A stretch of 64,000 nucleotides of DNA from a virus: the IMG/VR virus record IMGVR_UViG_3300045988_042432. The stretch is one strand, 5' to 3'. The notes beneath the pieces were generated by a model. The model did not search any database and was not told where the DNA came from. It was given only the letters and a program-made list of their open reading frames with translations. Numbering within the stretch: the first letter of the stretch is position 1; each line of letters opens with the position of its first letter. Below are positions 1,690 to 56,961 of the stretch, one piece after another. The position numbers and the translations under genes are program-made.

Positions 1690-1754
1690 ATCACTTAAAT
1701 TTTAATCATTATAAAATAAAGGAGGGATGCTACTCCCTCCTTCTTGTACATATA

Positions 1755-3710: not shown

Positions 3711-3728
3711 TTTAATATATTATGTGTT

Positions 3729-4712: not shown

Positions 4713-4720
4713 ATGTCAAA

Positions 4721-5797
4721 TTAGAATTTAGCGATTAAAGTTACTGAACCTCTAGTAGAACCATTGTAAGTGTAAACTGAATAAGTTACAGGTGTGGTTC
4801 CAATAGTAATCTCTTCTTCTGTCTTAGTCCAGTCACTAAGTCCTATAACTTCCATGTTACCTGATACTGTGTTCAACATTTGAAGTTGAGTGACAGCTCT
4901 TGGCAGCTTGAATACCTGTGGAAGAGTACCAGAAGGTTGTAATTCAAATCTAGGAGTAGTCATAGCTCCAGTAGAAGTATTCCAAGCAATAAGAGCTTGT
5001 TTAACCACAGGCGTACCAGAAGAAGCTGTACTTGTAGATGCATACCAAGGATATGTACCATTAAGTGTGATAGCTGAAGAGTTAACCGAACCAGCTGCAA
5101 GTGGAGTGCTATAATTGTTTCCTTTGTTATCTTTAGGTTGAGGTCCTTGCAAATAAGCTGCCTTATAAGTATAAGTAGTATTACCAAGTGTTACAGTAGT
5201 AGGCAGAGTTGTGTTAGACTCTTGTCCATTTACGAAGATAAATGAATTATCTGCATCTAAGTTACCAGACCTGTCTGCTTGTTTTGTTCCATTTAAGGTA
5301 ATAGCTCCCTTATTAAGACTAGTGTTGAAGTTAGCAGCAGTAGGTGCAGTAGCTCCAACTTCTTGAGGAGTTGAATAACTCTTAAATGAGATGCTTGCAG
5401 TAGGAGCAGTAAATGTAGGATTAATAGTAGGGAACAGCAGTTCATCCCACATATAATCATATGTCTGTCCTTCCAGAGCACTTACCTTAGTTCCTTTAGC
5501 GATACCACCGACAGCATTAGGCATAGCTAAATCTTTGTCCTCAATAGCTGATGTATACTTACCGCTACCTACTTCAATCTCTGTTGTAGTAGTATCAGAG
5601 TAAGTAATGACCAGTTTGCTTTTATCAGAAGACAAGGCTACATTAGTAACGACTTTACCAGCAGCTAGAGCTCCTGTGTAAGCCTTACCATTCATAAGGA
5701 TTTCATTGGTGTCTGTAGCAAAGTAAATCCCATCCTTGTGAGTAGTTTCAGCTACGTAATTGGCTTTTAACCCTCTGTAAAATTTTAATTGTGCCAT
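4721..5797 (-). CDS. fibre-associated structural protein (putative)
   Basis: 358-aa ORF. The N-terminus KDGIYFATDTNEILMNGKAYTG resembles the shared N-terminal module of the neighbouring fibre genes. Confidence 0.55.
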   Translation of the reverse strand: MAQLKFYRGLKANYVAETTHKDGIYFATDTNEILMNGKAYTGALAAGKVVTNVALSSDKSKLVITYSDTTTTEIEVGSGKYTSAIEDKDLAMPNAVGGIAKGTKVSALEGQTYDYMWDELLFPTINPTFTAPTASISFKSYSTPQEVGATAPTAANFNTSLNKGAITLNGTKQADRSGNLDADNSFIFVNGQESNTTLPTTVTLGNTTYTYKAAYLQGPQPKDNKGNNYSTPLAAGSVNSSAITLNGTYPWYASTSTASSGTPVVKQALIAWNTSTGAMTTPRFELQPSGTLPQVFKLPRAVTQLQMLNTVSGNMEVIGLSDWTKTEEEITIGTTPVTYSVYTYNGSTRGSVTLIAKF

Positions 5798-5811
5798 AAA
5801 ATTTAATGATG

Positions 5812-7416
5812 TTATTTAATAAATATGTTAATAGGGAGCACAGTATTATCACTGAATCTTACCTCCCCGCCAGTTATTTCACCACTGGCATTCTTATACA
5901 AATCTACTCCAGTTGGAGTTATAGTTCCATATGTTTCCCAAGTTTCTCCATTCCAAGCATAGTTAGCACCGTCATTAATAACGTTGTAAATATCACCTAC
6001 TTCTGGAGCAGAAGGTAAATACATACGAGTAGCTACAGACCCCTTATATCTAATAGCTGTAGAATCAGAAGATATAAGTATATCTCCATTACCGAGTACT
6101 GACTTACCATTAATCTTCTTAATGTTAACTCCACTAACAAGCTTATCTTGTTTAGTAGATAGTAAGTACTCCATAGTATCTTTCAATGTATTAATTGATT
6201 GTTGTATATGTGTTAAGTCAATAGATACATCTTCGGAACCGTCGTAACTAACCTCTCCTTCAGAATGCTTAACTGTTAAAGTTCCTACTGGATAACTCTC
6301 TGGTAAATCAGCGAGTCTGGTAGCTTTAGCAGTAGTTACTTCATTCCAAGTATAAGAAGTCAAGTCTGACATTAATGCAAGTGAATCAGTGTCTTCCCCT
6401 ACTACAACAGCTGGTCTTGTGTTAGTATATATCTCCAGATAAGAATTAACATTACCAAGTTTAAACCCTCCGGAATTGTCAGATGATATTAAATTCTGAA
6501 CACCGTCTCTACGATTAACCACAATTCCTTGACCTTCCTCTAATACTATATTACCATCAACCAAACTAACTTTATTGTCTAAATCACTTTCGATATTAGA
6601 TATAAGAGCGTCAGTTTCTGATTTAGTATAATATAAGTCAGGGTCTAAACCTCCACCACCTTCAGAGGCATATTTAACTCCATTAAGGTAAATAGACTTA
6701 ATGTCCTTTATGAAGTAAATGGTATTAGGTTCCAAAGTCTGTAGTAAATACTCATCGTAAGTATCTACGGCTTTAATTCTTACTGGGTATTCTGTACCTT
6801 CCCAACTAAATTTACAAACAACTCCTTTATCACCCTTAGTAATAACTATGTTAGAATCAGCATCAGTATCAACTACTAAGTCTGCCCTAACTCCAAAGTT
6901 TGAAGCTAATAAATCTACAGACCTATTAGTAATTGGATTATTAATTTTTAATTCTGATGCAATATTACCATTCTTAGTCTGGGTAATAATAGTATTAGTT
7001 ATTTGTCCTTTAGCTACAAAGTCTTCCAGAGACACTTCAAATCTATCTCCATTAGAAGCAGTAAGTATCAGCCATTCCTCATTCAGTGCATTACCGAATC
7101 CGTTATCTATATCCTCTTGTGTTATAAGATGTCTTTCAAACGAAACTATCTTAGTATCTTTATCAAGAAGGATTGATGATATTTCCTCACCACTTCCTCC
7201 TTTACCTATAACTCTAACCTTATTACCTTCTTCTTGAGTATCGAGTTCTACTATACCAGTTACCTGAGTAGCAATAGCATCTTTGATAGCTTTAGAAGAA
7301 GGAATAGAGTCTTCAACGTCTATTGAGTCCGACACCGTATATGGGCCATATGTTGTCCACAAGTAGTCCAACTGGCTCATATTAGCGGGTCTATTAGGAT
7401 ACTGTTTCTTCATCAC
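5812..7416 (-). CDS. structural protein, function unassigned
   Basis: 534-aa ORF packed tightly in the fibre run; overlaps the upstream gene by 23 nt. Confidence 0.55.
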   Translation of the reverse strand: MMKKQYPNRPANMSQLDYLWTTYGPYTVSDSIDVEDSIPSSKAIKDAIATQVTGIVELDTQEEGNKVRVIGKGGSGEEISSILLDKDTKIVSFERHLITQEDIDNGFGNALNEEWLILTASNGDRFEVSLEDFVAKGQITNTIITQTKNGNIASELKINNPITNRSVDLLASNFGVRADLVVDTDADSNIVITKGDKGVVCKFSWEGTEYPVRIKAVDTYDEYLLQTLEPNTIYFIKDIKSIYLNGVKYASEGGGGLDPDLYYTKSETDALISNIESDLDNKVSLVDGNIVLEEGQGIVVNRRDGVQNLISSDNSGGFKLGNVNSYLEIYTNTRPAVVVGEDTDSLALMSDLTSYTWNEVTTAKATRLADLPESYPVGTLTVKHSEGEVSYDGSEDVSIDLTHIQQSINTLKDTMEYLLSTKQDKLVSGVNIKKINGKSVLGNGDILISSDSTAIRYKGSVATRMYLPSAPEVGDIYNVINDGANYAWNGETWETYGTITPTGVDLYKNASGEITGGEVRFSDNTVLPINIFIK

Positions 7417-8785
7417 CTTCTACGTCAATCCAAGTTACTTCACCACCTATATCATCTGGAAGTTGTTCTTTAGGAACCTTTCCGCTTACTAAATCTGCTT
7501 TAGACTTTAGTAGAATTTCAACTTCGGGCAAAGAAATGGCTCCAATCTGTGCTGGAGTGACTCTATGTGGATTGTTGAAATCTTTAAGGTGGCTATCAAT
7601 ATCACTTTGTAATTCGCTAATAACAACATCCAAGGCTTTAGAATCATGTGTAATGTTATCGGAAGTACCTTTAACATACAGAGCATTTCCTTCTTTTACT
7701 AAGATGTTATCTTTAGCTATATGTAACCTAACGTCAGCAGAAAGCTTATCAGCGCCAGTTCCTAATGATAACACTTTCTCCAATTCTACTACCTTATCAG
7801 GAATAGAGTTATCAACTTCCCATTCTCTAATAAGAGTTCCAACTGGAATCCTAACTACTTGCTTATCACCAGTTAGAAGTTTAAATACTATAACTAGCTC
7901 TTCCGTATCTGGGTCGTACTTAGCATCCTCTACGATAGCTGACAAACCAATTTGATGTTGCCCTATAACATTATCGTTAACCTTAATAGTTAAGAGTCCG
8001 TCTAAATATTCAGTAGTTAGTTTATAGAATAGACCGTCATTCTTTATGGTAATTCCGTTACCACTATCAGTAGATACCTTAACATTACCAGATATTGTAG
8101 TTCCAGTAATCTGTCTATCAATATCTAATTCAATGCTTGGAGTATCTTCTAGTGTAACCCAGTTAAAGTGAATAGCATGATTCACTAATTCGTCTAGCTT
8201 GCGCAGAGAATCCATTACAGATGTAGAGTCTTTAAGGTAAGTAGTTTCAGTATCAGGAACATAAGCTCCGTCTTCTCCCAAACCTACTCCTTCTTGTGTC
8301 TTATCGAGTTCGGCTTGCACCTTATCAATATTACTCTGTAATTCCTCATCAGTGCTGTCTAGATTACCTAGATGCTCTCTAATTTTAGTAATTTCCTCTG
8401 CAATGTCCTTCAGACTGTTTAAGTCCTCTGGTACACTAGTATGGTCAACACTTCCCCAGATAGCATCGTCTGCTGTCTTTCTATCTTTAATTTCCTGCTC
8501 TAATCTAGTTATCAAGTCAGCTATAGTTTCATCACTCTTAGAAGTAATAAGTTTAGTAAACTCTAACTCATCGTTAGTCTCCTTTCTAGTGACCCAATAT
8601 AGTGCTTGATTACCATCTCCGTCATTTTCAACTACCTTTAACAATCCCTTGTGTAAAATAGCATTCTCTTCAGGAGATGAATAAAATTCTTTCAGTTTCG
8701 CTTCAGTTTCGAAGATATAGTCAGCTTCTATAGGGAACGGACCACCTCTTCTAAAACTTGCTATAATTTCACTATATGCTCTCAT
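7394..8785 (-). CDS. structural protein with coiled-coil segment, function unassigned
   Basis: 463-aa ORF in the late module. Confidence 0.55.
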   Translation of the reverse strand: MRAYSEIIASFRRGGPFPIEADYIFETEAKLKEFYSSPEENAILHKGLLKVVENDGDGNQALYWVTRKETNDELEFTKLITSKSDETIADLITRLEQEIKDRKTADDAIWGSVDHTSVPEDLNSLKDIAEEITKIREHLGNLDSTDEELQSNIDKVQAELDKTQEGVGLGEDGAYVPDTETTYLKDSTSVMDSLRKLDELVNHAIHFNWVTLEDTPSIELDIDRQITGTTISGNVKVSTDSGNGITIKNDGLFYKLTTEYLDGLLTIKVNDNVIGQHQIGLSAIVEDAKYDPDTEELVIVFKLLTGDKQVVRIPVGTLIREWEVDNSIPDKVVELEKVLSLGTGADKLSADVRLHIAKDNILVKEGNALYVKGTSDNITHDSKALDVVISELQSDIDSHLKDFNNPHRVTPAQIGAISLPEVEILLKSKADLVSGKVPKEQLPDDIGGEVTWIDVEGDEETVS

Positions 8786-10781: not shown

Positions 10782-11475
10782 TACAACCTCCTATTTGTTC
10801 TATGATTCGTTCAGCTTCAGCTAACTGATTAGATTGAACCATATATTTGATTACATTAATAGCCATCCAGACTAAATCTCTCTTGTAGGATAATTCGGCC
10901 GCTACAGCATTCTTACTCCAACATTTACTGAAACCTCTGCTATTAAATATTTGCTGGCACAAAGATATATAACATTTCTTAAGAAAACAAATAGACACGT
11001 AATTATTATATGTCCTAGAAATTGTAGTATCTTCTATGTTCCTCTCTACTATCTCATCTACAGTTACGGTCGTAGATGTGCCATTAAAATACTTATAGAT
11101 GTAGATGCCGTCCGAATAGTACACAGTGGCATACATAGTTACAGCTGAACCAGCCGTTTTACCTATCTCTCTATCAAACCAATCTTTAGTCGGCAGAACT
11201 ATATGATATACATTAAACCACCCATCAAACCCTACTGGCATAGTTACTGACTTATTACCGTCATCATGTAAAGTGTAAACAGGAAGTTGTATTTCAGGCC
11301 CATCTGCCTTATTATGTTGTAAGACATCAATAGATACAGTGTCAGAGTACTTGAATCTGTTCTTGACGATGACTGAAGAAGATTCAGGCAAATAGCCATT
11401 CTCTCCTGTACCAGTATCGTCAAGTATGATTACCTTACAGCTATCGTTAGTGCAAACTTTAATTTTTAATTCCAT
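10717..11475 (-). CDS. hypothetical structural-module protein
   Basis: 252-aa ORF whose start abuts the stop of the portal-sized gene. Confidence 0.6.
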   Translation of the reverse strand: MELKIKVCTNDSCKVIILDDTGTGENGYLPESSSVIVKNRFKYSDTVSIDVLQHNKADGPEIQLPVYTLHDDGNKSVTMPVGFDGWFNVYHIVLPTKDWFDREIGKTAGSAVTMYATVYYSDGIYIYKYFNGTSTTVTVDEIVERNIEDTTISRTYNNYVSICFLKKCYISLCQQIFNSRGFSKCWSKNAVAAELSYKRDLVWMAINVIKYMVQSNQLAEAERIIEQIGGCNGLCKSEYSKWPEQGCGCSQR

Positions 11476-13676
11476 TATACGTTCTTCACTTCGTTATTCT
11501 GCTGATTCCCATCGTACAATTGGGCTATCTCAATATCTGTTCTTTTGGTGTCATTATCAGAAGTACTCTGCTTATAATCTCTATCAGCGTTAGCCTTAAT
11601 AAGGCCAATCTCATAGTCATATTCAACCTTCTGCCTATCAATAGCAATCTTAGCTTCATTAAGAGATGCAATCTTATTATTAAGCTGCTCTTTCTCTTGT
11701 TCCGCCTTTTGAAGTTGCTTCTGTAGCTCTTCGTTCTGTTGTTGCATCTGTGCAGTGTTCTGAGTTTCTTCTCTTCTCTTTTGAAATGCCTTAGACAATT
11801 TAGACTTAAGTTCAGTCATACTTCTGGCAGTCATACACTCCATAGCTATGTCTGGGTCTAATTGACCACTCTTAATGAATTCAATCATTAATTGTTGCAT
11901 GTTCTGCATTTCCTCCATAATTCTACTACTAGCTATTACATGAATATCATAATCAGTAAAAGTAAAATGTTCAGGGAGAGCAGTGAACACTTTCTGTAGT
12001 TTGTCACCTAGCACTAAAGTTCCAGTAAGTGGTTTATGTTTCCATACCTTCTTAGCACAATTAAGAGAATCAATCAGAATATCCTCTGCCAAAGTATCCA
12101 TTTGCTGATAGTAAGATTTAGTAATGATATAAGAATTTCTCATACCTGCCTTAACATTACTAACAGCATCCCTGGTTTCTATTCCATTTAATCTCTCTCT
12201 AAACACTCCAGTAATAGATGATGTCTGCTCTTCTAACATCTGCAACGCCATATTAAATGCCTGAATAGTATCAGCTTTTAATAAGTCATCGAATCCAGCA
12301 AAAGAAGTATTGTTGTTAAATGCCCTACCTTCTTGTGAAGTATCAATAGGAGCCACACCAGTCTTCTTATAGGCAATGAATTTCTGCAATCTTTCAGTCA
12401 AATCATCACCAAGAGCCATAGGTAGCATACTAAAGTCAATCCAGTCTCCACTAGTACCACTATTAGCAATTACATTGTCCCTAAAGAAAGTAATCAAATC
12501 ATACTTGTCTTGAAGATGTGAACATGCAAGCACAAGTGAATATGGTTCGTTACTTCTGTTTACAAAGAACAAACCATTAACTGACAATCCACAGTGTGTA
12601 GGATTATCTTTAGTTCTAACTACATCAGGAGACTTACCAGTAAGAATGTAAATAGATTCTCCGATTTTAACTCCTTCATATCTATTCTCTACATAATCTT
12701 CTCCTTCTTTATCAACATCAATCCACTCAACTTCAAACACAGGTATTAACTTATAATTGTAAGTCTCATAGTAGTCGGTAGGGAATCCAGGTATTACTTC
12801 TTTACCCGCCTCGAGTCCGTCTGTAATAGGAGCTCCAGTAGCTTGATTGCTCATAGCGCGTACATATATATAACTACTATCGTAATATCCCTCAAACATC
12901 TCCTCTAATTCATTGATACTACTTGTATCTAGTTGAGGACCATATTTATTAAGTATTTGTTGCTTAGTTAACCAACGTCTAATAACTACTCTGTAGCTAT
13001 CTCTAACATATACAGATTCTGGATTTCTATCAACGAATACATTACGTGGGTCTAATACCTCTATTTCTATATTAGTTCTCTTCCTACTAGGATGAACCTG
13101 GTAAAAGCTCATGCCAGTTACTAGTAAGTCAAGTAACAGGTTCTTTAACTTAGTAAGTAAGTTAATATCTCTAGATTGGATTATATACTCAACAACATTC
13201 TGTGCAGCTATTTCATACTCGCTAACAAAGCTATTATTAATATCTTCTACTAACTTATTAAGTTGAGCCTCTACAGCCTTATCAGTTACTTCTTGTCCTC
13301 CTAAGAACGCTAGTATCTGATTGTTAAGATGTTGTTGTAAGTATTGATATACTTCTTTATTAATTTGTAATTCCTTATCTCTAGATATCTTAGATATAGT
13401 TTCTTTATCCTTGCATGACACTTTAGGCAGTAATGGAGTACCTAGGTATTCTCCAAGTAAAGCATCAACATGCTTCCTGATAAGAGGAGTAAATTCTATA
13501 GAAGTAGGATTACCTATTCCAAAATTCTCTTCTAGATACCTATATTGTTCGGCATCTCTATATCCATTATAATAATTATATGCTTTCTGTAATTTGTACT
13601 TAGGAAATACTAATTCTGACACTGCCTTATCAATATGCTCCATTAAGTACTCATCACTCCTGTTCTGTGCACTCAT
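11475..13676 (-). CDS. portal protein (assigned by size and synteny only)
   Basis: 733-aa ORF just downstream of the large terminase, with a Gln/Glu-rich coiled-coil C-terminus. Confidence 0.55.
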   Translation of the reverse strand: MSAQNRSDEYLMEHIDKAVSELVFPKYKLQKAYNYYNGYRDAEQYRYLEENFGIGNPTSIEFTPLIRKHVDALLGEYLGTPLLPKVSCKDKETISKISRDKELQINKEVYQYLQQHLNNQILAFLGGQEVTDKAVEAQLNKLVEDINNSFVSEYEIAAQNVVEYIIQSRDINLLTKLKNLLLDLLVTGMSFYQVHPSRKRTNIEIEVLDPRNVFVDRNPESVYVRDSYRVVIRRWLTKQQILNKYGPQLDTSSINELEEMFEGYYDSSYIYVRAMSNQATGAPITDGLEAGKEVIPGFPTDYYETYNYKLIPVFEVEWIDVDKEGEDYVENRYEGVKIGESIYILTGKSPDVVRTKDNPTHCGLSVNGLFFVNRSNEPYSLVLACSHLQDKYDLITFFRDNVIANSGTSGDWIDFSMLPMALGDDLTERLQKFIAYKKTGVAPIDTSQEGRAFNNNTSFAGFDDLLKADTIQAFNMALQMLEEQTSSITGVFRERLNGIETRDAVSNVKAGMRNSYIITKSYYQQMDTLAEDILIDSLNCAKKVWKHKPLTGTLVLGDKLQKVFTALPEHFTFTDYDIHVIASSRIMEEMQNMQQLMIEFIKSGQLDPDIAMECMTARSMTELKSKLSKAFQKRREETQNTAQMQQQNEELQKQLQKAEQEKEQLNNKIASLNEAKIAIDRQKVEYDYEIGLIKANADRDYKQSTSDNDTKRTDIEIAQLYDGNQQNNEVKNV

Positions 13677-13965
13677 TACAACTCTCTAATCCGTTATATT
13701 GTTTATATCCTAGGAAATAATGTGTGTCGCCTAATCTTCTATCTCTTAATTCCTGTCTAAGAAATTTAAGATACGCTACTTCACCACCCTCAAACGATAT
13801 AATAAGTGGCTTGTCTATATTATTCATGCCAAGTGTTAACTTATAACCCCTATGTGTCCCCTCGGCAGTTTGTAGCTCTTCTAGCTTTAATTTAGCCACA
13901 TATTCTTTATGATAAATCTGTTTGAATAAATCTCTGATTGCTACTTCTAATTCTTGTAGGGTCAT
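13654..13965 (-). CDS. hypothetical protein
   Basis: 103-aa ORF between the terminase and portal genes; overlaps both. Confidence 0.5.
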   Translation of the reverse strand: MTLQELEVAIRDLFKQIYHKEYVAKLKLEELQTAEGTHRGYKLTLGMNNIDKPLIISFEGGEVAYLKFLRQELRDRRLGDTHYFLGYKQYNGLESCNECTEQE

Positions 13966-16183
13966 CGTATTGTGTAGGCCATAAATTAAACTTAGGTACT
14001 ATCTGTTGTTTCTCTGGAATAACTCCTTTATGTCTAATTCCTCTTTCGTCAACCCAATAACCGAAAGGTCTTAGTTTGTTATTAGGACTGTCCATTTCTT
14101 TAGGAACTACCCCCATTAATTCCTCGTCTCCTAGTTCGCACATACCCCATGCAGCTATAATATCAAACTTACGTTTATTCTCATAACTGTATTTAATTGC
14201 TTCTTCTAGAATTTCTTCAAACCATATATTATGACAATAATCTTCTATATGTTGAGCTATTAAATCTAATTGATGCCTAATTACTACTTCAGTAGCAGGA
14301 GCTCCGAATTGTTTACTACGACCTCCTTGTATGTCAGATTGAGTAGCTCTAGGTCTTCTCATCAAATGTCTATTCTCTTTATGTTTCTCTCTAAAGAATT
14401 GCAGAGTAGACATTCTAGTAGATTCAAGAACAGCCTGACAATCGTAATACTGCAATATCTTAAGACATGTCATATGTGCTTCACGTAAAGTCTTAGGTCT
14501 GTCCCTATAATAGCACACTATTTTAGGTTCATCTAACCCATAAGCTCTCTTTTTAACTACTACACAGAAATCAGAAGGGTCTTGAGTCTTATCAGAAGTG
14601 TCTTCACCACCCATATCAATACCGTCAATACCAGCAACATATAAATTTCTAGGTACAGCTCCATGTTCTCCTCTAATCGGATGTTCAAGTATCTTAACCT
14701 TACCTTTAGGATTACTAACAAATCTTACACTATCAATTGCTTCCTCTGTGTGCTGGTTGTTAGTAAAATTATACTCTAACTGGCCTACATCAATATGTGG
14801 TCCCAGTTTATGTAATTTAATATTAGCAAGTTGCTCACTTAACAATACAGTATTAAACTGATTATCTCCTTCAAGAGCCAAAGCATCATCAGGAGTAAAA
14901 CAGAACTCTGCACATGCAATTAAATGCTCCTTCGGGTTAGCTAGTAGAGCTTCTCTTTGGTCTAAATAGAACTTCTTAGCCTTCGCAGTATTAGTAACTC
15001 CTCTATCGTCTACATATCCATTTGCTGCTACGAATGTATAGGCAGGTATGAAGAATGAGGTAAAAGCATAAGACCCGTCTTTAGTATGGTTATGTTTATA
15101 AGGTAAGAAATTATATCCAGCTGGATTATAAAACATCTTACTAAGTCCGTCAAGTGCAGGTCCCTGGTCTCCACCTGTTCCCCACACAAATCTAGTTCCA
15201 AACTTATTACCTAGAATTTCTACAAGAGCTGTACTCTGTAAGTAAGTCTTTACTAGGATTGGGTTAGAACCAGATTCTTCAAAGAACAATCTATCCACAC
15301 GGTCTCCACGGAGTTTACGAGGAACATCTACTACGAAACCAATAATGTCTGACATGAATCCAAATTCTTCTCTGTCTTTAGTAAGAAGAGAAGCTCTCTT
15401 ATGCATATCAGAATTATACTTCTGTCTTAGATGTCTCATGCCGCCTTCTGTATCAGCATTTAAATATTCAAGCTGTTCCCAGCATTTACGAAGCACGTCA
15501 CTAACGAATTTCTCGGTAAATGCTACATATACTGTATGTGAACCTCTAACAGTTGTATATAACCTAACTCCTAAAGATGCTGCAATTTCAGAGAATCCGA
15601 CTCCACGAGCTTTAAGGGCGCACACATCCTTCTTCAACTTCTCACACATTTCTATGTAATGGAAGTACTCATACTGCTTACTAAAGAATGAAGGGAATGT
15701 AGTTTCACGACCGGTACCAGCTTGAGACACATCGGTGTTCTTTAGTCTATAATAATTAAGGAAGAAGTAATTATCACCTGTGATTCTATACCCATGTGAT
15801 TCATATCCTTGATTACATCTTCTATGTTCTTCAGTCCAGAAGTCATTATACTTCTTAGTTCCTTTAGGATAGGCACAGTATTTACCGTCTCTTAATTTAA
15901 TCTGTCTAGCTTCAGTGAACCACTCTGGATTAAAATCTAATCCTCTTTCTTCATCCACTGGTCGATATCCAGTCAGCTCATAAGATAGAGTAGGGTCGAA
16001 ATGCTTAATCTCAGTATCTAATGTTACATCCCATACAATGTTAGACGTACTAACTGATTTATCTTCTATAATAGGGTCTACGTATGGAATAGCCTCTATC
16101 AATTCTGGTTCTACTCTTTGTATTAACTCTTGAACTGTTTCTGGAACTTCGACTTTCTTCTTAGGTCTACCACGTCCAGCCAT
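13907..16183 (-). CDS. terL: terminase large subunit
   Basis: 758-aa ORF with an ATPase-like segment ...LKARGVGFSEIAA... and a later acidic nuclease-type segment ...LYVAGIDGIDMGGEDTSD.... Size and position next to the portal-sized gene also fit. Confidence 0.7.
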   Translation of the reverse strand: MAGRGRPKKKVEVPETVQELIQRVEPELIEAIPYVDPIIEDKSVSTSNIVWDVTLDTEIKHFDPTLSYELTGYRPVDEERGLDFNPEWFTEARQIKLRDGKYCAYPKGTKKYNDFWTEEHRRCNQGYESHGYRITGDNYFFLNYYRLKNTDVSQAGTGRETTFPSFFSKQYEYFHYIEMCEKLKKDVCALKARGVGFSEIAASLGVRLYTTVRGSHTVYVAFTEKFVSDVLRKCWEQLEYLNADTEGGMRHLRQKYNSDMHKRASLLTKDREEFGFMSDIIGFVVDVPRKLRGDRVDRLFFEESGSNPILVKTYLQSTALVEILGNKFGTRFVWGTGGDQGPALDGLSKMFYNPAGYNFLPYKHNHTKDGSYAFTSFFIPAYTFVAANGYVDDRGVTNTAKAKKFYLDQREALLANPKEHLIACAEFCFTPDDALALEGDNQFNTVLLSEQLANIKLHKLGPHIDVGQLEYNFTNNQHTEEAIDSVRFVSNPKGKVKILEHPIRGEHGAVPRNLYVAGIDGIDMGGEDTSDKTQDPSDFCVVVKKRAYGLDEPKIVCYYRDRPKTLREAHMTCLKILQYYDCQAVLESTRMSTLQFFREKHKENRHLMRRPRATQSDIQGGRSKQFGAPATEVVIRHQLDLIAQHIEDYCHNIWFEEILEEAIKYSYENKRKFDIIAAWGMCELGDEELMGVVPKEMDSPNNKLRPFGYWVDERGIRHKGVIPEKQQIVPKFNLWPTQYDDPTRIRSSNQRFIQTDLS

Positions 16184-21916: not shown

Positions 21917-22307
21917 ATGACTTTAATTCAAAATGAAGACAACAAATGCCCTACCACTAAACAGGTGAATGATGCACTCGAGTCTATGGGGGGGGGTTCA
22001 GACCCTGGTTTTAACAACATATAATTTAATTAACACAGATAGAAGTAGTCCCTTAGAAGTAAACAGTTCAGACCAGGCGGTGATGGATACTGTAAAGTCT
22101 AATGCGGAGAAAAATATTCCATTTCAATTACTGTACTATGGAGTAATTAGTGGAACTAGTTCAGTACAATTACTTCCAGTATCACTATATGGTATACCGT
22201 TAGCTAATGTGTTCACATTATACGTAAATCAAAGTGGTTTACAGCACTTTAGCCTTAACAAAGGCTCCAATCAAAAGTGGACTGCTTCTACACTTAGTAA
22301 TTCTTAA
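21917..22307 (+). CDS. G-tract family member P1, frame-broken at G9
   Basis: ATG 21917 gives MTLIQNEDNKCPTTKQVNDALESMGGG and then stops. The long frame 21969..22307 continues only if the tract is 8 or 11 G. Confidence 0.6.
21988..21996 (+). repeat. homopolymer G9
   Basis: Read directly: ATGGGGGGGGGTTCAG. Confidence 0.95.
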
Positions 22308-22338
22308 CATTTAAGAATTAAAGTACATTAATCGCAGT

Positions 22339-22542
22339 ATGAGAAATTTTATATTTGACGTCTGGGTTTGGTCTAAAGCCAAACACTCCAGACTACTTAA
22401 GCAAATAAGGGTAAAGGCACTATCGTTTCCTTCAGACATGTTCTGTTTGAACGAAGCTGCTAAAGATGCAGATGTATCACCCTACATGAAATCAGATGAA
22501 TTTGAAGTAACAATTGGTAATTTAAGAGAATATCAAGAATAA
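22339..22542 (+). CDS. hypothetical protein
   Basis: 67-aa ORF; its stop overlaps the ATG of P2 (TAATG). Confidence 0.55.
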   Translation: MRNFIFDVWVWSKAKHSRLLKQIRVKALSFPSDMFCLNEAAKDADVSPYMKSDEFEVTIGNLREYQE

Positions 22543-23037
22543 TGGAAAGTACTAATGAATTAGTAACAGCAGCTGAAGCTAGAGCAGAAGGCTTAAGCTT
22601 AGACGGAGTTGCGAACAATAGATGTATCACTAAGCAACAATTCAACGATAACCTACCGTCGGGGGGGGGGTATTGCTGACGCTATAGATTTATTAAACGG
22701 TTCACTAAGCGGTAGCACCCTAATATTCTTTAATAACACTACTGTAGACACTACAATGGGTATATCAATCATAAATATGTATGGTCAAAGCACATCGGCT
22801 ACACCAGATATTCCTGCTTCATCTATGGTGGTATACCCTATAGCAGGTGCTATAAGAAATGTAGCTTTGTTTGGCAATAGTGTGATTGGAAGTAATACTT
22901 ACGTAGCATTCCTATTAAATAATGCAAAGAATATGAATTACTATTCTAATTATGAAACAGATAAACTTATTATAGGAACTAATCAGAATTTGCCAGTACA
23001 GGGTCTACTTGCCGTTATGTGTATAAACAATACATAG
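22542..23037 (+). CDS. G-tract family member P2, frame-broken at G10
   Basis: ATG 22542 gives MESTNELVTAAEARAEGLSLDGVANNRCITKQQFNDNLPSGGGYC-stop. The frame 22609..23037 continues only if the tract is 9 or 12 G. Confidence 0.6.
22661..22670 (+). repeat. homopolymer G10
   Basis: Read directly: CCGTCGGGGGGGGGGTATTGC. Confidence 0.95.
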
Positions 23038-23049
23038 CAAGTATTTAAA

Positions 23050-23592
23050 ATGACAAATAAAATTGCAACAGAACAATATTTAATTAATTTAGCTGGTGGA
23101 GGTACAAATACTCCAACCAAGTGTGCCACTAGAGATAGAGTAGAGTTCTTCGGACTTGAAACTAACGATAATTACGCTAATAATCAGTTAGTTAAGGAAG
23201 AGGATATACAGTTGTCAACATTTCAGTATGACTTCAATATACATGTTTCAATAACTAACTCTGGGCTTACGTCTAAATCCTATGACTTTGTAGCAGATGT
23301 TTACATAGATGGAGTTCCAGATGGGTTTATAACAATTCCTAGGTCTGGAACTCTAGACTATCAAGGGGCAACTTTCTTTGACAGAAACTTCCACTTTAAT
23401 TTACCAACTGATTTAACTAGTGTCTCTAAATTATTGTTCACTGGATATTTCAGTACATACAGGGTGACTGTAGATGCGGATAGTGTAACAAATAATGCAG
23501 TATGCCAATCTGGGGTAACTACTGAAATACCAATAAATCAGGCATATATAGGAGGTGACACAGCTAATATTTCTATAAATGTAATTATATAA
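23050..23592 (+). CDS. G-tract family member P3 (intact, no homopolymer)
   Basis: 180-aa ORF MTNKIATEQYLINLAGGGTNTPTKCATRD...NNQLVKEEDI. The GGG is encoded by GGTGGAGGT at 23095-23103. Confidence 0.75.
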   Translation: MTNKIATEQYLINLAGGGTNTPTKCATRDRVEFFGLETNDNYANNQLVKEEDIQLSTFQYDFNIHVSITNSGLTSKSYDFVADVYIDGVPDGFITIPRSGTLDYQGATFFDRNFHFNLPTDLTSVSKLLFTGYFSTYRVTVDADSVTNNAVCQSGVTTEIPINQAYIGGDTANISINVII

Positions 23593-23834
23593 TGAAGTTT
23601 GTAACATTCTTAAAGCAAGTATTCACATCCCACTCTGGCATATCATCTAAGAGACTCTGCGGAGTAGTAGGGTGGTTTGTCTGCTTGGGAGTGTTAATAT
23701 ACTGTGCAATAAACGTAATTCAAGCCCCATTAATGATAGACACAGTCCTGTTGTGTTGTATGGGATTGCTTGGCATAGATTCAGTAACAGGAATATGGAA
23801 GAGATTCACCAATAACGATAAATCGAATAAATAA
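23592..23834 (+). CDS. small two-TM membrane protein (holin-like; speculative)
   Basis: 80-aa ORF with two hydrophobic helices; start and stop overlap its neighbours. Confidence 0.5.
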   Translation: MKFVTFLKQVFTSHSGISSKRLCGVVGWFVCLGVLIYCAINVIQAPLMIDTVLLCCMGLLGIDSVTGIWKRFTNNDKSNK

Positions 23835-26800
23835 TGAAAGTAATACCTAAACTACAACAAGGAAACACCATAGAGTCCGATAATACTAAAGTAGTTAGGC
23901 CAGAAATTCATGAACCTATTAAAGCTAAACCTAGACAGTATTCCATTGTAGATTTAGGTGGAGAACCTTCTAATGATACCAGGTCAGCTGCTGAAAGAAA
24001 TAGAGACTATTGGCATCCTATTAAGGGAGCTAAAGCCAGATTCAAGGCTTCTATGTCCAATGAGACTAATCCTCTAGTTGGAATAGAAAGAACTATACTT
24101 CCTTCAGCAGCTGGTGCTGCATTAGTAACAACTCCAGCCGCTGTTGTAGGAGGAGCTTTAGGTAATATGACTGTGGATAAGCTTACCGGGGGCTGGGGTA
24201 ATTGGTTAGAAGATAAGACTGGCATTCCGTCTGAAATTGGAATTTATACTAATCCAGGAGCTTGGTATGGTGGTGCTAAAGGATATAAGATTGGAAAGAA
24301 CAAGCTAATAACTAAATCAATTAAAGGTGATGCTGACCTAGCTTGGAATCCTATTAACAAGAATCATTGGATATTTAATAAGGAAGCAAGGACTCCTTCT
24401 AATATAGCAATGGCAACAGCTAACAGAATTACTCCATTTCTATCTAAGGTAGAGAAATTACCATTAAAAGTGGCTGCTTATAAAGCTGCCAAGAGAACTA
24501 ACGGTAATGCATCAGTAAGTTTGCAAGATATAAAAACAATGCCAGCCGACTACACAGGTTCTTCAATATTAGGTGGAGGAAATTTAGAAGGTAGGAATCT
24601 ATTAGCTAAATATATATTTGATGAGAATCCAGTAGTTAAAAGAATGTTCTTTAATAAAGCTACTAGTAATATCAAACCTATTAGCCGTAATGAAGCAAGG
24701 AGAGGATTTAGTCATGGGGATAGATATGAGCAGCTTTATCCTGGAGTTCATAACAGAAGATACGAAATGAGTGCAGTAGTACCCTCTGGTAGACCTCTTA
24801 AGTTTGAGAATGTTACAAAGTTTACTGATTATGCTGGAAAGAATCCAATCGGCAAGGTTGTTGGTAAGGAGACTGAACCAGTAATGCGTATGGGAGATAA
24901 AGAGTTTATGACCTTTAGGCAGCCAGGAACCGATTATATAGGTCCTATTGATGACGTTGCTGGACACTTGGTTAAGTTTCAAATGAATAAGGGTAAGCTT
25001 AGACAGACTTCTCAAGATATGTGGAAATTTAATCCTGCTGACTATGCTAAGAGGTGGAATGATTCTCCTAATACTGCTAACCAAGTTAGGCTTATTAAAC
25101 AAGCTGCATTAATGGATAAAGTAGGTCGTCCTTTCATATTGCAGCAATCTAATCCTATATGGATTGAAGGTAAGTCTGTTAGAAATCCGGAATTGGTAAC
25201 TATGGCACATGGTGGAAGATTTGATTTTAAGAAGTCCCCTCTGCTAAAGAAACAAGAAGAGATTAACGGTAAGAGGGATATGCGTAAGAAGTTCATCAAA
25301 TCAAGTCGCCCAACCTATAAGAAGCGAATCAAGAAAGCTCAACAAGGAATGAAGTTCGTAAGTTATAATCCAGTAAGTAATCCTACAATAGATTACACTG
25401 ATATTACTAATCCTATTAATCCATTTAGTGAGTATAATTATAATACAACTTACGATAAACCAGAAGCTTTAGTAGTACCAGTAAGAGATACTGAAGAAAC
25501 TGATGTAGTAGCTAATAATCCTACAGTAGAGCCAGTAATTAATAAGCCAGTAGCTAGTAATCCTGTTACCAATAAACCTGTTACTGCCAACTCAACTTGG
25601 AAGAGTCCATATACTAACAGAAGACAATGGTCTACAGAACTTATTAATGCCTATAAGAAGGCAGGTATTACTAATGATAATGCAATTAGAATGCTATTAG
25701 CACAAGACGCATTAGAATCTAGTTGGGGTAAGTCTGCACAAGGTAAGTACAACTTTGGCAATTTAACTACTGGTAGTTCATGGAAAGGTGATTATGTAAC
25801 TGGTAATGATAAAAATGCTAGAGGTGAAGCTATTAAGCAGAAGTTTAGGTCTTATAATTCTATGGATGAGTATGCAGCAGATAAGATACAATTCTTAAAG
25901 AGACTATATGACTTTGATGAGAATGATGATATTAATAAGTTTGTAGCTAAGCTTACTGGTTCTAATAAAGGTAAGAGAAGATATGCAGAAGCTAAGGAGT
26001 ATGCCAATTCATTAAGAGGCGTGTATAATAGTTTCAAAGCAGGTGGTATTATTAAATATCAAGAACCAGCACAACCTATAGCTAGAAGAGATGCTATTAA
26101 GGATTACAGACCTGAAATTCCACTTAGTCCTATTAAGCAACCAGTTAAACCTTATATGCCAACTCAACAGCCAGTGCTATCTTCTGATAATAGAACTGGT
26201 TGGGAGAAAGAAGTATCTAGGCAAATCAAAGCTGATAAAGCTAAGAATGATAAACTTTATGGTAATCAGCATACTTGGAACTGGTCTGCACCATTTACCA
26301 ATGCTAGAATTACTAAAGATAATGCTAGTGCTATATTTGATTTTGATAAGTCAGCAGCTATGAGTACATTTGCAATTGGACAGGGAATTGCTAGTCCTGT
26401 TACTACTGCAACATCTATAGCAGGTTCACTAGTTGGAGCTGGTATAGGTAATAAGGTAGCAGGAGAGAAAGGTGCTCTAGTCGGTGGATTTGTTGGTGGA
26501 ATGGTTAATCCTAGGTTTAGATTTGGGAAGAGTAGTTCTACTAAGAGACGGGAACATGGTAATGTAGCAGATAACGTTAATTTACATAGTAAGATGAATT
26601 TCGATGATTATGACCAAATTGTTAATGCAATAGATAATGAGGAGGAGTTATATAGACTTTATCTACAGAATGAAACTGTAGCTAAGAGAATACGTGAAGT
26701 TTCTCCGTCTTATGTAAAGGAGGTTAATAACTTTATTAAGACTAAAATCAAGAAGAGGTTTGGTAAGCCAACTAATGGTAATTATCAGGCTGCCAATAGA

Positions 26801-27430
26801 GTAGCAGATGATGCTCCAGAAGTTACATTTGGAGGAGTTCCGTTTAAGTATCAAGAGAATGTCTACAATATAGAACCAGGTAAACCTATACCCCATTTGG
26901 AGTTTGTAGCACATGAGAATAGCCATGGAATAGACAGGGCTGTGAGTAGATTACTAAGTACTGATTATCTAAGGAATTTATTGAATCCAAGTGACAAACT
27001 TCCGTTTAACAAATGGATTAATGAAGTTAAGAAGAGTAAGGCTGTAGTTGATTATATAAAGAGAAGTAGAAATTTAGATGTAAACAACCCAGCAGATTAC
27101 TCTAAAATAGAGAAGGAAGTTTATAAATACTTCTCTGACCCTACAGAGATTAAGGCATACTTCAGTAGGATTCCATTTGAGAAGTATAAGAAGTCAGTAG
27201 ATAGGAGCTTTGACGGGAAGGTTATTAATAATCCAGTATCAAAGGATATATTCCAAATCACTGATGCAGATATACTAGATGATGTTAGATTACAACTTAT
27301 AGCTTCTATCTATAAACGAAACGACATGGCGTCTTATGAAGCATTAAAGAGTAATCTTACTAATAAATTATGGGGAGTGTCTGCACTAGGTATTCCTGCA
27401 ATCAACACATTAATTAATGGATATGAATGA
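23834..27430 (+). CDS. large virion-associated cell-wall hydrolase (FlgJ/glucosaminidase-like domain) with C-terminal HExxH
   Basis: 1198-aa ORF with LLAQDALESSWGKSAQGKYNFGNL...KFRSYNSMDEYAADKIQFL (glucosaminidase pattern) and a later FVAHENSHGID. Confidence 0.7.
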   Translation: MKVIPKLQQGNTIESDNTKVVRPEIHEPIKAKPRQYSIVDLGGEPSNDTRSAAERNRDYWHPIKGAKARFKASMSNETNPLVGIERTILPSAAGAALVTTPAAVVGGALGNMTVDKLTGGWGNWLEDKTGIPSEIGIYTNPGAWYGGAKGYKIGKNKLITKSIKGDADLAWNPINKNHWIFNKEARTPSNIAMATANRITPFLSKVEKLPLKVAAYKAAKRTNGNASVSLQDIKTMPADYTGSSILGGGNLEGRNLLAKYIFDENPVVKRMFFNKATSNIKPISRNEARRGFSHGDRYEQLYPGVHNRRYEMSAVVPSGRPLKFENVTKFTDYAGKNPIGKVVGKETEPVMRMGDKEFMTFRQPGTDYIGPIDDVAGHLVKFQMNKGKLRQTSQDMWKFNPADYAKRWNDSPNTANQVRLIKQAALMDKVGRPFILQQSNPIWIEGKSVRNPELVTMAHGGRFDFKKSPLLKKQEEINGKRDMRKKFIKSSRPTYKKRIKKAQQGMKFVSYNPVSNPTIDYTDITNPINPFSEYNYNTTYDKPEALVVPVRDTEETDVVANNPTVEPVINKPVASNPVTNKPVTANSTWKSPYTNRRQWSTELINAYKKAGITNDNAIRMLLAQDALESSWGKSAQGKYNFGNLTTGSSWKGDYVTGNDKNARGEAIKQKFRSYNSMDEYAADKIQFLKRLYDFDENDDINKFVAKLTGSNKGKRRYAEAKEYANSLRGVYNSFKAGGIIKYQEPAQPIARRDAIKDYRPEIPLSPIKQPVKPYMPTQQPVLSSDNRTGWEKEVSRQIKADKAKNDKLYGNQHTWNWSAPFTNARITKDNASAIFDFDKSAAMSTFAIGQGIASPVTTATSIAGSLVGAGIGNKVAGEKGALVGGFVGGMVNPRFRFGKSSSTKRREHGNVADNVNLHSKMNFDDYDQIVNAIDNEEELYRLYLQNETVAKRIREVSPSYVKEVNNFIKTKIKKRFGKPTNGNYQAANRVADDAPEVTFGGVPFKYQENVYNIEPGKPIPHLEFVAHENSHGIDRAVSRLLSTDYLRNLLNPSDKLPFNKWINEVKKSKAVVDYIKRSRNLDVNNPADYSKIEKEVYKYFSDPTEIKAYFSRIPFEKYKKSVDRSFDGKVINNPVSKDIFQITDADILDDVRLQLIASIYKRNDMASYEALKSNLTNKLWGVSALGIPAINTLINGYE

Positions 27431-29071: not shown

Positions 29072-30155
29072 ATGAGTAGAATAGTAACACAAAGTAAATT
29101 AAACGAATTAACAGGTAAGAATATAGATTACGGGAGGGGGGGGGTATTGTCCTCACTACCAAACCATAGTTAGTCTCTGGGGTAGCGTAGTTGCGTCTAG
29201 TAACTACCAGCCAAATCAATTAGTTAAAGAAGAAGATATAGTTGTAGACAAAGACCTATTCCTTATTAATGCGGAGACAGGTAGTTTATACTTTGCTGGC
29301 GGTGGTACCTATGCTCAAATTCCAGCTATAGACGGCCATGAGGATTTTATATACATAGCTGGAGGAGGTGAAGCAATTGGAGCATTGTCTATGCTTGGAG
29401 GATTGTATGTAGTTAATCAGTCTACCAAACAGTGGGAATTAAAATACAAAGATACTGTAAGAGCTTATGGTTATGCTCACTTGGCTAGGTTCTCTACTGG
29501 CTGGGTATTTTATAAGGGAGCAGGAGGAGACGGTAAGAACTATGTTATTATAGTGTATGATGACGGTACAGTAAAGGAGCGTAGTGTTGTAGGCCCAGTC
29601 AGTAGCATATCAACTGGGCCTTATGATTACTGCTGTGTTGGGGCATCATATCAGGGAGGAGCTAGAATATATACCTTCTTGGCTACATCTGTACCAGATT
29701 CTCTTACTTATTATACTCCAGGAATGTTTACACCAAGTGCAGTAATACAAGGGTTTCATTCTTCGCCAAGAAGTGTAGTATATAGCACTACAAGTAATTA
29801 TACATACGTTAGTACTAACCCAACTGGAACTCAATGGACTGCTGCAACCACTAGACCACAACTAACAGGTTTGACTAAAGGATTGTATGTAAATGAAGCT
29901 GGGACTAATACATTTATGCTTATAGGAAATAATATGAAGAGTGTGTCTACAGATAGGGGTAATAATTGGACTACATCTACACTAGGTGAATATACTCTTA
30001 CTGATTTAATATATGTAGATTCAAATTGGTATGCAATTGGTTCGAATGGAACTAAAAGACTCCTATTGCAGAATACAGCTTCTACATTTGACCAAAGTAA
30101 TAAAATACTTGACTTGCCTGACTATTCTAGACAAGTAATTAAAATTAATACATAA
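29072..30155 (+). CDS. G-tract family member P4, frame-broken at G9; C-terminal beta-propeller-like domain with Asp-box
   Basis: ATG 29072 gives MSRIVTQSKLNELTGKNIDYGRGG... and then stops. The other frame is open from the tract to 30155 and contains NYQPNQLVKEEDI (family motif) and STDRGNNWT. It is in frame with 8 or 11 G. Confidence 0.6.
29136..29144 (+). repeat. homopolymer G9
   Basis: Read directly: CGGGAGGGGGGGGGTATTGT. Confidence 0.95.
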
Positions 30156-32991: not shown

Positions 32992-33635
32992 TGCGCTGAC
33001 GCTGTATACAGTTCTATGTTTAGGTCTATTTCCCCACCAGTAAATCTAAATACTCTACCAGAATTATTCATTTTGACCCACCTTCCAGATGAAGGGAATG
33101 TTACTCCTTCTGCCCAATTCTCAGATTGAGAATCTACTGCTAATGTAATTTGAGACACTTGCCTAAGCATCACGTATCCCTCAAAACGTATCCAAACAGG
33201 TGTATTATATGGGTCTTGGTTAGAAGGTGCTAATTTCTCTAAGTAATATTTAAGAGGATTTGCTAAAGTCTTAGTGTACGTTCGTTCTCCTTGCTCTAAT
33301 CTTGGAGTAATTGCAAAGTACATAGTATTGTCAGAATACGTAAACGGCTCTCCATTCACTGAACTCTCATTAACAAATGAGAAACGTACTCTAAATTGCT
33401 GTATATTATTAATTGGCATATCCTGCCAACCATAATGAAGGATTACATTTGGAGCAGTTATAGCTGCCTCTATACCTTCTAACTCCACTAACTGATTATC
33501 AGTATAACTAAATCCACTTTTAATCTGACATCCTAATTCAAGTGCTCTAGCTTTAGTACAGCACTTATTATCAATTACCGAGAGAGTCCCCCCCCCCATA
33601 GTCTTAGCTTCTAATTCTGTTGCTATTTTACTCAT
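32988..33635 (-). CDS. G-tract family member P5 (in frame through G10)
   Basis: 215-aa ORF MSKIATELEAKTMGGGTLSVIDNKCCTKARALELG...DNQLVELEGIE. Met-Gly-Gly-Gly is encoded by ATG+G9, seen as C10 on the plus strand. Confidence 0.75.
   Translation of the reverse strand: MSKIATELEAKTMGGGTLSVIDNKCCTKARALELGCQIKSGFSYTDNQLVELEGIEAAITAPNVILHYGWQDMPINNIQQFRVRFSFVNESSVNGEPFTYSDNTMYFAITPRLEQGERTYTKTLANPLKYYLEKLAPSNQDPYNTPVWIRFEGYVMLRQVSQITLAVDSQSENWAEGVTFPSSGRWVKMNNSGRVFRFTGGEIDLNIELYTASAQ
33588..33597 (-). repeat. homopolymer G10 (C10 on the plus strand)
   Basis: Read directly: GAGAGTCCCCCCCCCCATAG. Confidence 0.95.
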
Positions 33636-33864
33636 GGTTCTTGTATCGTTCTGTAATATTAATTAAATCCTTGTTGTCATGCAGTAACTCTAAGAAAGCC
33701 TTGTCTACTGCTATATCAAATGCAGTATTAGTAATGATTGGTTCTTTATGCACTCTCTCAATCTCTTCTCTAATCATTTGTTCAGATAATTGAGTGTATA
33801 ATCGTCTGGTATAATCATTATACCAAGGCTCTTTAAATGTTACTATAATTTCTTCTCCTGTCAT
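33628..33864 (-). CDS. hypothetical protein
   Basis: The track ORF starts at a TTG. The ATG at 33864 overlaps the stop of the upstream mini-ORF (ATGA). Confidence 0.55.
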   Translation of the reverse strand: MTGEEIIVTFKEPWYNDYTRRLYTQLSEQMIREEIERVHKEPIITNTAFDIAVDKAFLELLHDNKDLINITERYKNHE

Positions 33865-33971
33865 AAATATATTGTCTTTAGTAATCCAGGTAGGCAATAC
33901 TTCCAGCCTGGATATATGTATGCATTCCTATACAATGCTTCTTCTACTAATTCTACTTCTTGTGTTATCAT
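33861..33971 (-). CDS. 36-aa mini-ORF linked to both neighbours by ATGA overlaps
   Basis: Own translation: MITQEVELVEEALYRNAYIYPGWKYCLPGLLKTIYL. Confidence 0.35.
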   Translation of the reverse strand: MITQEVELVEEALYRNAYIYPGWKYCLPGLLKTIYL

Positions 33972-48938: not shown

Positions 48939-48940
48939 CT

Positions 48941-56909: not shown

Positions 56910-56961
56910 CGCTGGCTAATAAGAGTTTGCGAAAATCATTATTAACCTAATTATTAGAATT

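Follow-up and report, generated by a model that had tools for sequence, protein, structure and literature searches.

Candidate phase-variable poly-G tracts in accessory genes of a large human-gut phage

The window analysed in this study, the whole 64,000-nt stretch of the IMG/VR virus record IMGVR_UViG_3300045988_042432, belongs to a large uncultured phage of the human gut and carries a tract of nine or ten G residues close to the 5' end of each of four genes, termed P1, P2, P4 and P5 here. Based on a comparison between related genomes, these tracts are interpreted as slipped-strand ON/OFF phase-variation tracts of accessory proteins with variable C-termini; a probability of about three in four is assigned to this interpretation. 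The idea of a slipped-strand contingency locus had been put forward in a first-pass annotation of the same DNA and is strongly supported by variable tracts next to stable control homopolymers, by the decoupling of tract length from phylogeny, by intact downstream frames and by the occurrence of locked alleles.

Results

Four G tracts in the window

The genes and tracts are listed with their coordinates in the window. ON and OFF denote an open reading frame (ORF) that is or is not continuous across the tract.

P1, 21917 to 22307, plus strand: as assembled a 35-aa N-terminal ORF and a C-terminal frame open to the TAA at 22305–22307
P1 tract, 21988 to 21996, plus strand: G9, OFF
P2, 22542 to 23037, plus strand: 45 aa as assembled; stop codon TAG
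P2 tract, 22661 to 22670, plus strand: G10, OFF
P3, 23050 to 23592, plus strand: intact, 180 aa; member of the module family described below; Gly motif encoded as non-slippery GGTGGAGGT
P4, 29072 to 30155, plus strand: 33 aa as assembled; divergent N-terminal module and a seven-bladed beta-propeller
P4 tract, 29136 to 29144, plus strand: G9, OFF
P5, 32988 to 33635, minus strand: intact, 215 aa; strong member of the module family
P5 tract, 33588 to 33597, minus strand: C10 on the plus strand, G10 on the coding strand, read as ATG plus G9, ON

Run positions and lengths at P1 and P2 (G9 at 21988–21996 and G10 at 22661–22670) are as given in the first-pass annotation, and the frame arithmetic is right as well. 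P1 is in frame with G8 or G11 (about 130 aa, 129–131), P2 with G9 or G12 (164 aa with G9) and P4 with G8 or G11 (361 aa), while P5 is already in frame. In the assembly, P1, P2 and P4 are out of frame, and loss of a single G restores each of them; the repaired or intact genes are open to their stop codons (P1 130, P2 164, P4 361 and P5 215 aa). P3 is intact and encodes the GGG tripeptide by the non-slippery GGTGGAGGT, as had been annotated.

The window has a G+C content of 36.9% and contains only four G/C runs longer than 5 nt, located in P1, P2, P4 and P5. The longest G/C run besides these tracts is 5 nt, in line with the earlier statement that no comparable run exists, and the longest A/T run is 6 nt. 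Six overlapping matches to a G9 pattern were counted, compared to 0.05 expected from 100 dinucleotide-preserving shuffles. Among 32 long ORFs, glycine is encoded least often by GGG (54 of 779 Gly codons, 6.9%), and none of the 69 Gly-Gly dicodons in these ORFs is GGG-GGG; that the tracts are not a product of chance, as claimed before, is upheld by both counts. All four tracts are G on the sense strand and lie 40–125 nt past the start codon (codons 15–45), and all four are slippable homopolymers inside an ORF at the length expected of a contingency locus (about 7 nt or more of G/C).

Tract length varies between related genomes

Related loci were taken from IMG/VR (57; L002–L057) and GenBank (one; L001), corresponding to approximately 45 distinct contigs, with 93–100% identity to the window around the genes. 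The P1 tract was found as G7 (three contigs), G8 (six), G9 (13), G10 (three), G11 (one) and as an interrupted G6AG4 (one), and 7 of the 27 contigs read through (ON). For P2, lengths from G6 to G11 were observed with a mode at G9, which is the ON length, and read-through in 13 of 27. The P5 tract ranges from G7 to G10 (ON in 8 of 18 contigs), that of P4 from G8 to G10 in the related loci (ON in 2 of 13 informative genomes). At least seven more copies of P5 are present in JGI metagenomes, five with G9 and two with G10 among the matches listed. P1 and P2 are found in all four possible combinations of ON and OFF among the related genomes.

The tracts differed in length from those of the window in 42 of 64 between-genome observations, compared to 6 of 247 for control homopolymers of 5–6 nt (15–41 kb), so that between genomes the tracts vary far faster than their surroundings. 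The homopolymer control was used in place of a raw indel count over the whole locus, which is unsuitable because divergent segments give paired alignment gaps. Two genomes (L014 and L015) show 0 differences in 3065 flanking bases, yet have G9 and G10, respectively, at both P1 and P2, and the fraction of genome pairs with unequal P2 length is 0.7–1.0 in every divergence class. Tract length is decoupled from relatedness.

Point mutations that fix the frame were found inside or at the edge of the tract in P1 (G6AG4) and P5 (G6AG3 and G9A). In-frame variants of P4 in the protein databases either differ by whole codons (GKGGY, GKGGGY and GKGGGGY) or are interrupted (GKGRGY and GKGEGY). Variable tracts come from independent sources, namely GenBank (MT835470), HMP-type and further IMG/VR entries, and JGI, ENA and Logan contigs.

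These observations bear on the possibility of sequencing or assembly errors, in which the true tracts would be fixed and in frame and the lengths from G6 to G11 would be Illumina or assembler miscalls. Long G homopolymers are error-prone, G9 is modal at all four tracts whatever the frame, and all three broken window genes require the same correction. Still, six lengths roughly symmetric about 9 exceed the ±1 expected of a many-read consensus, the spread is seen in contigs of many independent projects, whole-codon (GG, GGG, GGGG) as well as point-interrupted variants exist, and tracts are found at the same motif in unrelated phages (see below). Error as the origin of the variation is considered very unlikely.

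The modal length G9 is out of frame in three of the genes (P1, P4 and the ATG allele of P5). It is taken to reflect a mutational equilibrium around G9 in genes that are dispensable; with an OFF mode at G9, selection for the ON state is not visible in the consensus genomes. In Campylobacter jejuni, shorter tracts gain and longer tracts lose G, and the modal length is presumably near G9 likewise.

Frames downstream of the tracts are intact

The post-tract frame is open to the normal stop irrespective of the tract state in all copies of P1 (22/22), P2 (26/26) and P5 (20/20). The tract length therefore toggles the frame, and OFF alleles retain an intact downstream frame (68/68). The C-terminal part of P1 has diverged to 77% nucleotide identity between clades and shows in-frame indels, and the tract is kept in both clades. 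Pooled pairwise Nei-Gojobori ratios of non-synonymous to synonymous substitution rates (dN/dS), uncorrected for phylogeny and thus indicative values, were 0.28 for P5, 0.54 for P1, 0.57 for P3 and approximately 2.1 for P2. As judged from the compared genomes, the downstream coding capacity is shown to be kept by selection. Decay of the broken genes into pseudogenes was rejected in view of the intact downstream frames and the dN/dS values.

A related explanation regards the tracts as mutational hot spots in dispensable genes under loss, with an ON/OFF pattern that has no adaptive role. OFF is the commonest consensus state of P1 and P4, P3 is knocked out in 5–6 genomes although it has no tract, and some genomes lack P4 or P5 or have it fused, all of which would fit. 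This explanation accounts poorly for the open frames behind all 68 tracts, for dN/dS values well below 1 in P5, P1 and P3 and a value above 1 in P2, where the sites cluster, for the persistence of uninterrupted tracts across clades of 77% identity in a genome that avoids GGG, and for tracts at the same motif in other phages. It is rated as improbable, slightly less so than sequencing error.

The losses of P3 have a different origin. In four genomes (L022, L023, L024 and L026), one TAGAG unit (5 bp) is deleted at 23134–23149 from a short tandem repeat, TAGAGATAGAGTAGAG, and in two others (L021 and L020) 1-bp deletions were found. This is a second, non-homopolymer way to switch off a family member, and the losses agree with genes that are often better switched off.

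In the C-terminal domain of P2 (22671–23037), the replacements among 27 near-identical genomes are concentrated at roughly twelve positions of an otherwise conserved scaffold, for example S/G/N-G/D, I-I/M/T-N/S/D, N/Y/H/T-V/I/A/M and L-I/T/N/V/F. From this pattern, the domain looks as if it were under diversifying selection and resembles a ligand-binding surface in an arms race. A diversity-generating retroelement (DGR) was ruled out as the source of this variability, because the variable columns have no adenine bias (A 20, G 16, T 16 and C 11) and the window has no template repeat. No second copy of the C-terminal part of P1 or P2 was found in the window.

An N-terminal module shared by P3, P4 and P5

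P3, P4 and P5 have a module of approximately 55 residues at the N-terminus in common, with the consensus MGKIATEQEAYNIGGxGTPxxNKCCTKSRAEALGCKVSGSYxxNQLVQLxDLS. Module profile scores were 88 bits for P5, 84 for P3 and 19 for P4 (also included in the A3 profile), and only 6.8 and 1.7 bits for P2 and P1, which are not assigned to the family. P1 and P2 resemble each other only over 19 residues (DNKCPTTKQVNDALESMGG and NNRCITKQQFNDNLPSGGG, respectively) that end in the tract. A shared N-terminal layout, originally proposed for all five proteins, is thus confirmed as the module in P3, P4 and P5 and does not extend to P1 and P2. In P3 and P5, the GGG tripeptide is part of the module's IGG motif ahead of KCxTK, whereas in P1 and P2 the tract is located behind a KCxTK-like motif, which means two layouts and two tract positions. 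With the low module scores of P1 and P2, this contradicts the view of a single family with all tracts at an equivalent codon. The proposed K-(I/C)-x-T motif merges two distinct motifs, KIATE and KCxTK. The earlier statement that the C-terminal domains are unrelated holds: in pairwise BLASTP comparisons, a 37-residue match between P1 and P4 reached E = 0.004 and all other pairs E ≥ 0.9.

An exhaustive profile search revealed the module in 237 clusters at 50% identity, always N-terminal and followed by unrelated C-termini of 60–900 aa; some relatives carry BspA-type leucine-rich repeats (LRR_5) or InlB B-repeats there. Among 50,697 GenBank phage records, only MT835470 contained the module (tblastn). 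A protein homologue search with the module profiles returned nothing beyond short fragments of close relatives, and a search with the consensus sequence returned one viral contig. To judge from these searches, the module constitutes a large undescribed family.

Several rearrangements involve the module genes. Protein-database entries (the set P0001, P0058 and P0054) include a chimera of the P4 N-terminus and the P5 body, joined exactly at the GGG tract, a second one of the P4 N-terminus and the P3 body, joined at NQLVKEEDI, and a deleted form in which the P5 N-terminus is fused to a downstream 65-aa ORF. P4 is completely absent from one genome (the set of chimeras and deletions includes contig 046952, L003/L039). 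The region from 26 to 32 kb is a hot spot of gene content, and the module apparently serves as a handle for recombination.

P4 and P5 are convergent, and in IMG/VR 3300045988_033017 (L021, L028 and L049) the 4.56-kb segment bounded by the ATG codons of P4 and P5 (29072–33635) is inverted, with the crossover in the common start ATGAGTA(G/A)AATAG. By this inversion, P4 is placed behind the region that precedes P5 in the window, where an 89-aa ORF (33628–33897) overlaps P5 by ATGA. Neither long inverted repeats nor an invertase were found at P4–P5. A switch of the invertase type is unsupported in the absence of long inverted repeats and with a single inverted genome found.

A 74-aa relative consisting of the module only was found with a 364-aa ORF directly after an IS1595-family transposase (L059 8001–8225 and L060 8001–8225). 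This unit occurs in two different chromosomal contexts of Bacteroidota-like appearance, so that the module extends beyond phage genomes.

Tracts in other phages of the module family

A tract at the Gly motif of the module recurs in unrelated family members in other phages. P0101 (730 aa, from two independent contigs) has ATA-G11-C encoding IGGGG at this motif, and its nine-glycine stretch further on uses mixed codons. P0135 carries G11 at the same motif. On contig L066, two divergently transcribed family genes have G10 each at the motif; the two are OFF as assembled, and taking away one G brings each into frame. Non-slippery codons, as in P3, were found at the motif in P0069 and its neighbour, P0087, P0119 and P0174, and about half of the GGG-bearing gene lineages inspected, a small sample, carry a tract. 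The pattern of G9, 9–30 nt and KCxTK matched only P5 of the window clade in IMG/VR and, among the matches listed for JGI metagenomes, the window clade and chance matches. The other tract-bearing lineages were found in ENA and Logan contigs only.

Protein identity and fold

P1 to P5 gave no match above threshold with Pfam (cut-off), PHROG or PDB sequences. Their description as fibre-like in the first-pass annotation is unproven, given this result and the different N-termini of the phage's own fibre genes. An AlphaFold2 model was obtained for P0219, a P4 orthologue with 97% identity, from an alignment of 27 sequences (predicted local distance difference test score, pLDDT, 88.6; predicted template-modelling score, pTM, 0.81). 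It shows a small N-terminal module followed by a seven-bladed beta-propeller, and the nearest structures were Ycf48/BNR-like and other generic propellers with template-modelling (TM) scores of 0.5–0.6. A single-sequence AlphaFold model of P5 reached a pLDDT of 32.6 only. As for gene neighbourhood, the module gene of L058 lies among tail-fibre-like genes, and on a 240-kb contig (L067) an LRR member adjoins a fibre protein with an S74 chaperone domain.

The modelled propeller of P4 and the LRR or InlB repeats of the relatives give the C-terminal domains the look of binding modules. Fold types, diversifying selection and neighbourhood together make it slightly more probable than an even chance that the proteins take part in recognising the host or a surface as anchored, exchangeable binding proteins.

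Discussion

Proposed mechanism

During phage DNA replication, the polymerase would slip on the G9–G10 tracts and add or drop one G, and the change in length would move the gene in or out of frame, since the tracts are situated within the first 15–45 codons. Such frameshifts would be heritable and presumably reversible. In the accessory proteins concerned, a short N-terminal part would be followed by C-terminal domains that evolve fast or are interchangeable. With four genes toggled independently by slippage, a phage population would contain a reversible mixture of up to 2^4 expression states. It is further proposed that slippage takes place within populations and is reversible, that OFF alleles probably make no functional protein, that the proteins may be virion-associated, as receptor-binding proteins or adhesins, and that switching may be adaptive bet-hedging against variable hosts.

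Two alternatives concern the expression of OFF alleles. One is recoding at the RNA level, by transcriptional slippage or +1/-2 ribosomal frameshifting, as the designed mechanism, with DNA length variation as a neutral by-product. On a G9–G10 tract, tRNA-Gly could re-pair in any frame, the phage has its own tRNA-Gly(UCC), and the modal G9, in frame in P2, is out of frame in P1, P4 and P5, so that expression would often need recoding. Against this, variation was observed directly at the DNA level and is sufficient for switching, the shift needed varies with the allele (+1, -1 or 0), which is ill suited to a programmed frameshift, and interrupted, "locked ON" alleles suggest that the DNA frame matters; a stimulatory element was not noticed, nor was one searched for. 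Recoding as the principal mechanism is judged unlikely, at about one chance in ten the least unlikely of the alternatives weighed in this study. The other is a switch between isoforms: in certain OFF alleles, the C-terminal frame contains an ATG shortly before the tract, which could give an un-anchored or soluble form without the N-terminal 17–20 residues. In P1 with G9, the ATG at 21969 opens a 112-aa ORF in the C-terminal frame, and in many P4 relatives the called protein begins with MGRGGYCPHY..., its ATG being formed by TATGGGAAG. The window allele of P4, however, has TAC instead of TAT and thus no such ATG, P2 offers only a TTG, and there is no evidence of initiation at internal sites; this is the least probable of the explanations considered.

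Several further points weigh against slipped-strand phase variation of host-interaction proteins. The commonest assembled state in three of the four genes is G9 and hence OFF. All three broken window genes need the same removal of one G, and a systematic over-call would give the same pattern. RNA polymerase or ribosome slippage on G9–G10 could make OFF alleles leaky. No homology of P1 to P5 to a known tail-fibre or receptor-binding family was detected, and recognisable tail-fibre genes with different N-termini are located elsewhere (241–8785). Finally, a module relative adjoins IS1595 in a bacterial chromosome, and the module is therefore not strictly a virion feature.

A wider interpretation is more tentative and is held at somewhat less than even odds. 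According to it, the module might be a widespread cassette handle of gut-phage host-interaction proteins with a built-in poly-G switch at its conserved Gly motif. A phage would have several of these cassettes, each with another binding domain, and the cassettes would toggle independently by slippage and be reshuffled by recombination or inversion at the module. The chimeras of the P4 N-terminus with the C-terminal parts of P5 and P3 and the 4.56-kb P4–P5 inversion are offered for the reshuffling. If true, this would amount to a combinatorial, phase-variable repertoire of host range or adhesion in an abundant crAss-like phage, mirroring the phase-variable capsules of Bacteroidota.

Comparison with known systems

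The first-pass annotation had assumed that such tracts are without precedent in phage fibre-like genes. This is not the case: in Campylobacter phages of the genus Fletchervirus, tracts of 7–11 G are reported to occur in receptor-binding proteins and to lead to mixed populations infecting hosts with the phase-variable receptor switched off (Sorensen et al. 2021, Cell Rep 35:109214, via bioRxiv 10.1101/2025.10.21.683753 and PMC8766974). As in Fletchervirus, the window has intragenic G tracts in several genes per genome with ON/OFF states set by length. The tract genes of Fletchervirus serve host recognition, while a receptor-binding role is inferred for those of the window phage. The Fletchervirus phages are T4-like Campylobacter myoviruses, in contrast to the presumably crAss-like gut phage studied here; P1 to P5 are without homology (no PHROG match, no Pfam match above cut-off), and a window-phage tract lies in a conserved N-terminal module that recurs, with the tract, in other phages. 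The system works like that of Fletchervirus but is not homologous to it; the mechanism is known and is new for an abundant lineage of human-gut phages. Full-text literature searches yielded no report of such tracts for Crassvirales or gut phages.

With bacterial contingency loci, such as the poly-G/C surface genes of Neisseria, Haemophilus and Campylobacter, the window genes share a homopolymer in the 5' part of the ORF with an intact frame downstream, a length polymorphism decoupled from phylogeny and presumed slipped-strand mispairing. Unlike these, the tracts are viral and copied by a phage-encoded replisome, many rounds per burst. In T2 and T4, poly-A contingency loci of 6–9 nt (agt and rIIA) undergo reversible frameshifts in the sense of bet-hedging (Gomez, Barrick & Waters, bioRxiv 10.1101/2025.10.21.683753). 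The same study describes simple sequence repeats as under-represented in tail-fibre genes and poly-G tracts in the methylase gene of BPP-1 and a PB1-like baseplate gene. The T2/T4 loci are A runs in defence-evasion and lysis-timing genes of AT-rich coliphages, whereas the G runs of the window go against composition and codon usage. The phage-encoded variation of host-recognition proteins within a population also recalls the Mu G segment, the P1 C segment and the DGR of BPP-1 acting on Mtd. In contrast to the invertible segments of Mu and P1, the window has no invertase or long inverted repeats and its primary switch would be a frameshift; in contrast to the BPP-1 DGR, template repeat and adenine bias are missing.

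In the human gut, crAss-like phages belong to the most abundant viruses and persist for years beside their hosts. The hosts evade them through phase-variable capsules (for example PMC8375218). If the interpretation as phase variation is true, the tracts would be a contingency system on the phage side and the counterpart of capsule phase variation in the host, and would help to explain stable coexistence, apparent heterogeneity of host range and "broken" genes in assembled genomes. For annotation, it follows that frame-broken genes at G9–G10 tracts are not to be called pseudogenes or silently "corrected". The module family with its 237 clusters offers a handle for finding more switchable genes in uncultured phages.

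Gene neighbourhood and further observations

The large terminase (TerL) of the window is 100% identical to that of GenBank MT835470, an unannotated record of 117 kb from human faeces, and 28–31% identical to the best annotated matches, which are from crAss-like phages of Bacteroidota. From this similarity of about 30% to Crassvirales, a crAss-like lineage is inferred for the phage; its host presumably belongs to the Bacteroidota. Contigs carrying relatives are 93–186 kb in size. Features surrounding P1 to P3 are the following.

Structural block, 241 to 20355, minus strand: tail-fibre-like genes, portal and large terminase
Tail-fibre-like genes, 241 to 8785, minus strand
Portal, 11475 to 13676, minus strand: matches phrog_6547
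TerL, 13907 to 16183, minus strand
67-aa ORF, 22339 to 22542, plus strand: located between P1 and P2, with a stop that overlaps the start of P2 (TAATG)

The structural block is followed by a run of genes on the plus strand in the order endonuclease VII-like, protease-like, P1, the 67-aa ORF, P2 and P3. It continues 3' of P3 with a membrane protein of 80 aa, for which the matches are weak and holin-like, and a 1198-aa protein that contains a glucosaminidase domain. In the latter (23834–27430), the glucosaminidase domain (PF01832) is central and accompanied by glycine-zipper-like segments, and the C-terminal part beyond approximately 26080 is replaced in several related genomes. TAATG overlaps couple its translation to P3 and to the 80-aa holin-like ORF.

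A total of 23 predicted tRNA genes, covering most amino acids, is clustered at 41450–62482, with two overlapping calls on opposite strands at 56822–56925. One of the tRNAs has the anticodon CTA (48867–48939) and thus is an amber suppressor encoded by the phage. TAG serves as stop in only 3 of 45 ORFs. The TAG of P2 is in frame with P3 over a 12-nt spacer (TAG-QVFK-ATG, 23035–23049), an arrangement kept in 26 of 26 related loci, with a chance of about one in three to arise by chance alone, and the database protein P0116 has Q at this codon. Suppression of the TAG could give rise to a P2-P3 fusion protein. In L058 (IMG/VR 3300045988_048003), a viral contig with 29% G+C, the ORFs look fragmented under the standard code and the module gene has a stop after 51 aa, which suggests a reassigned stop codon in this phage.

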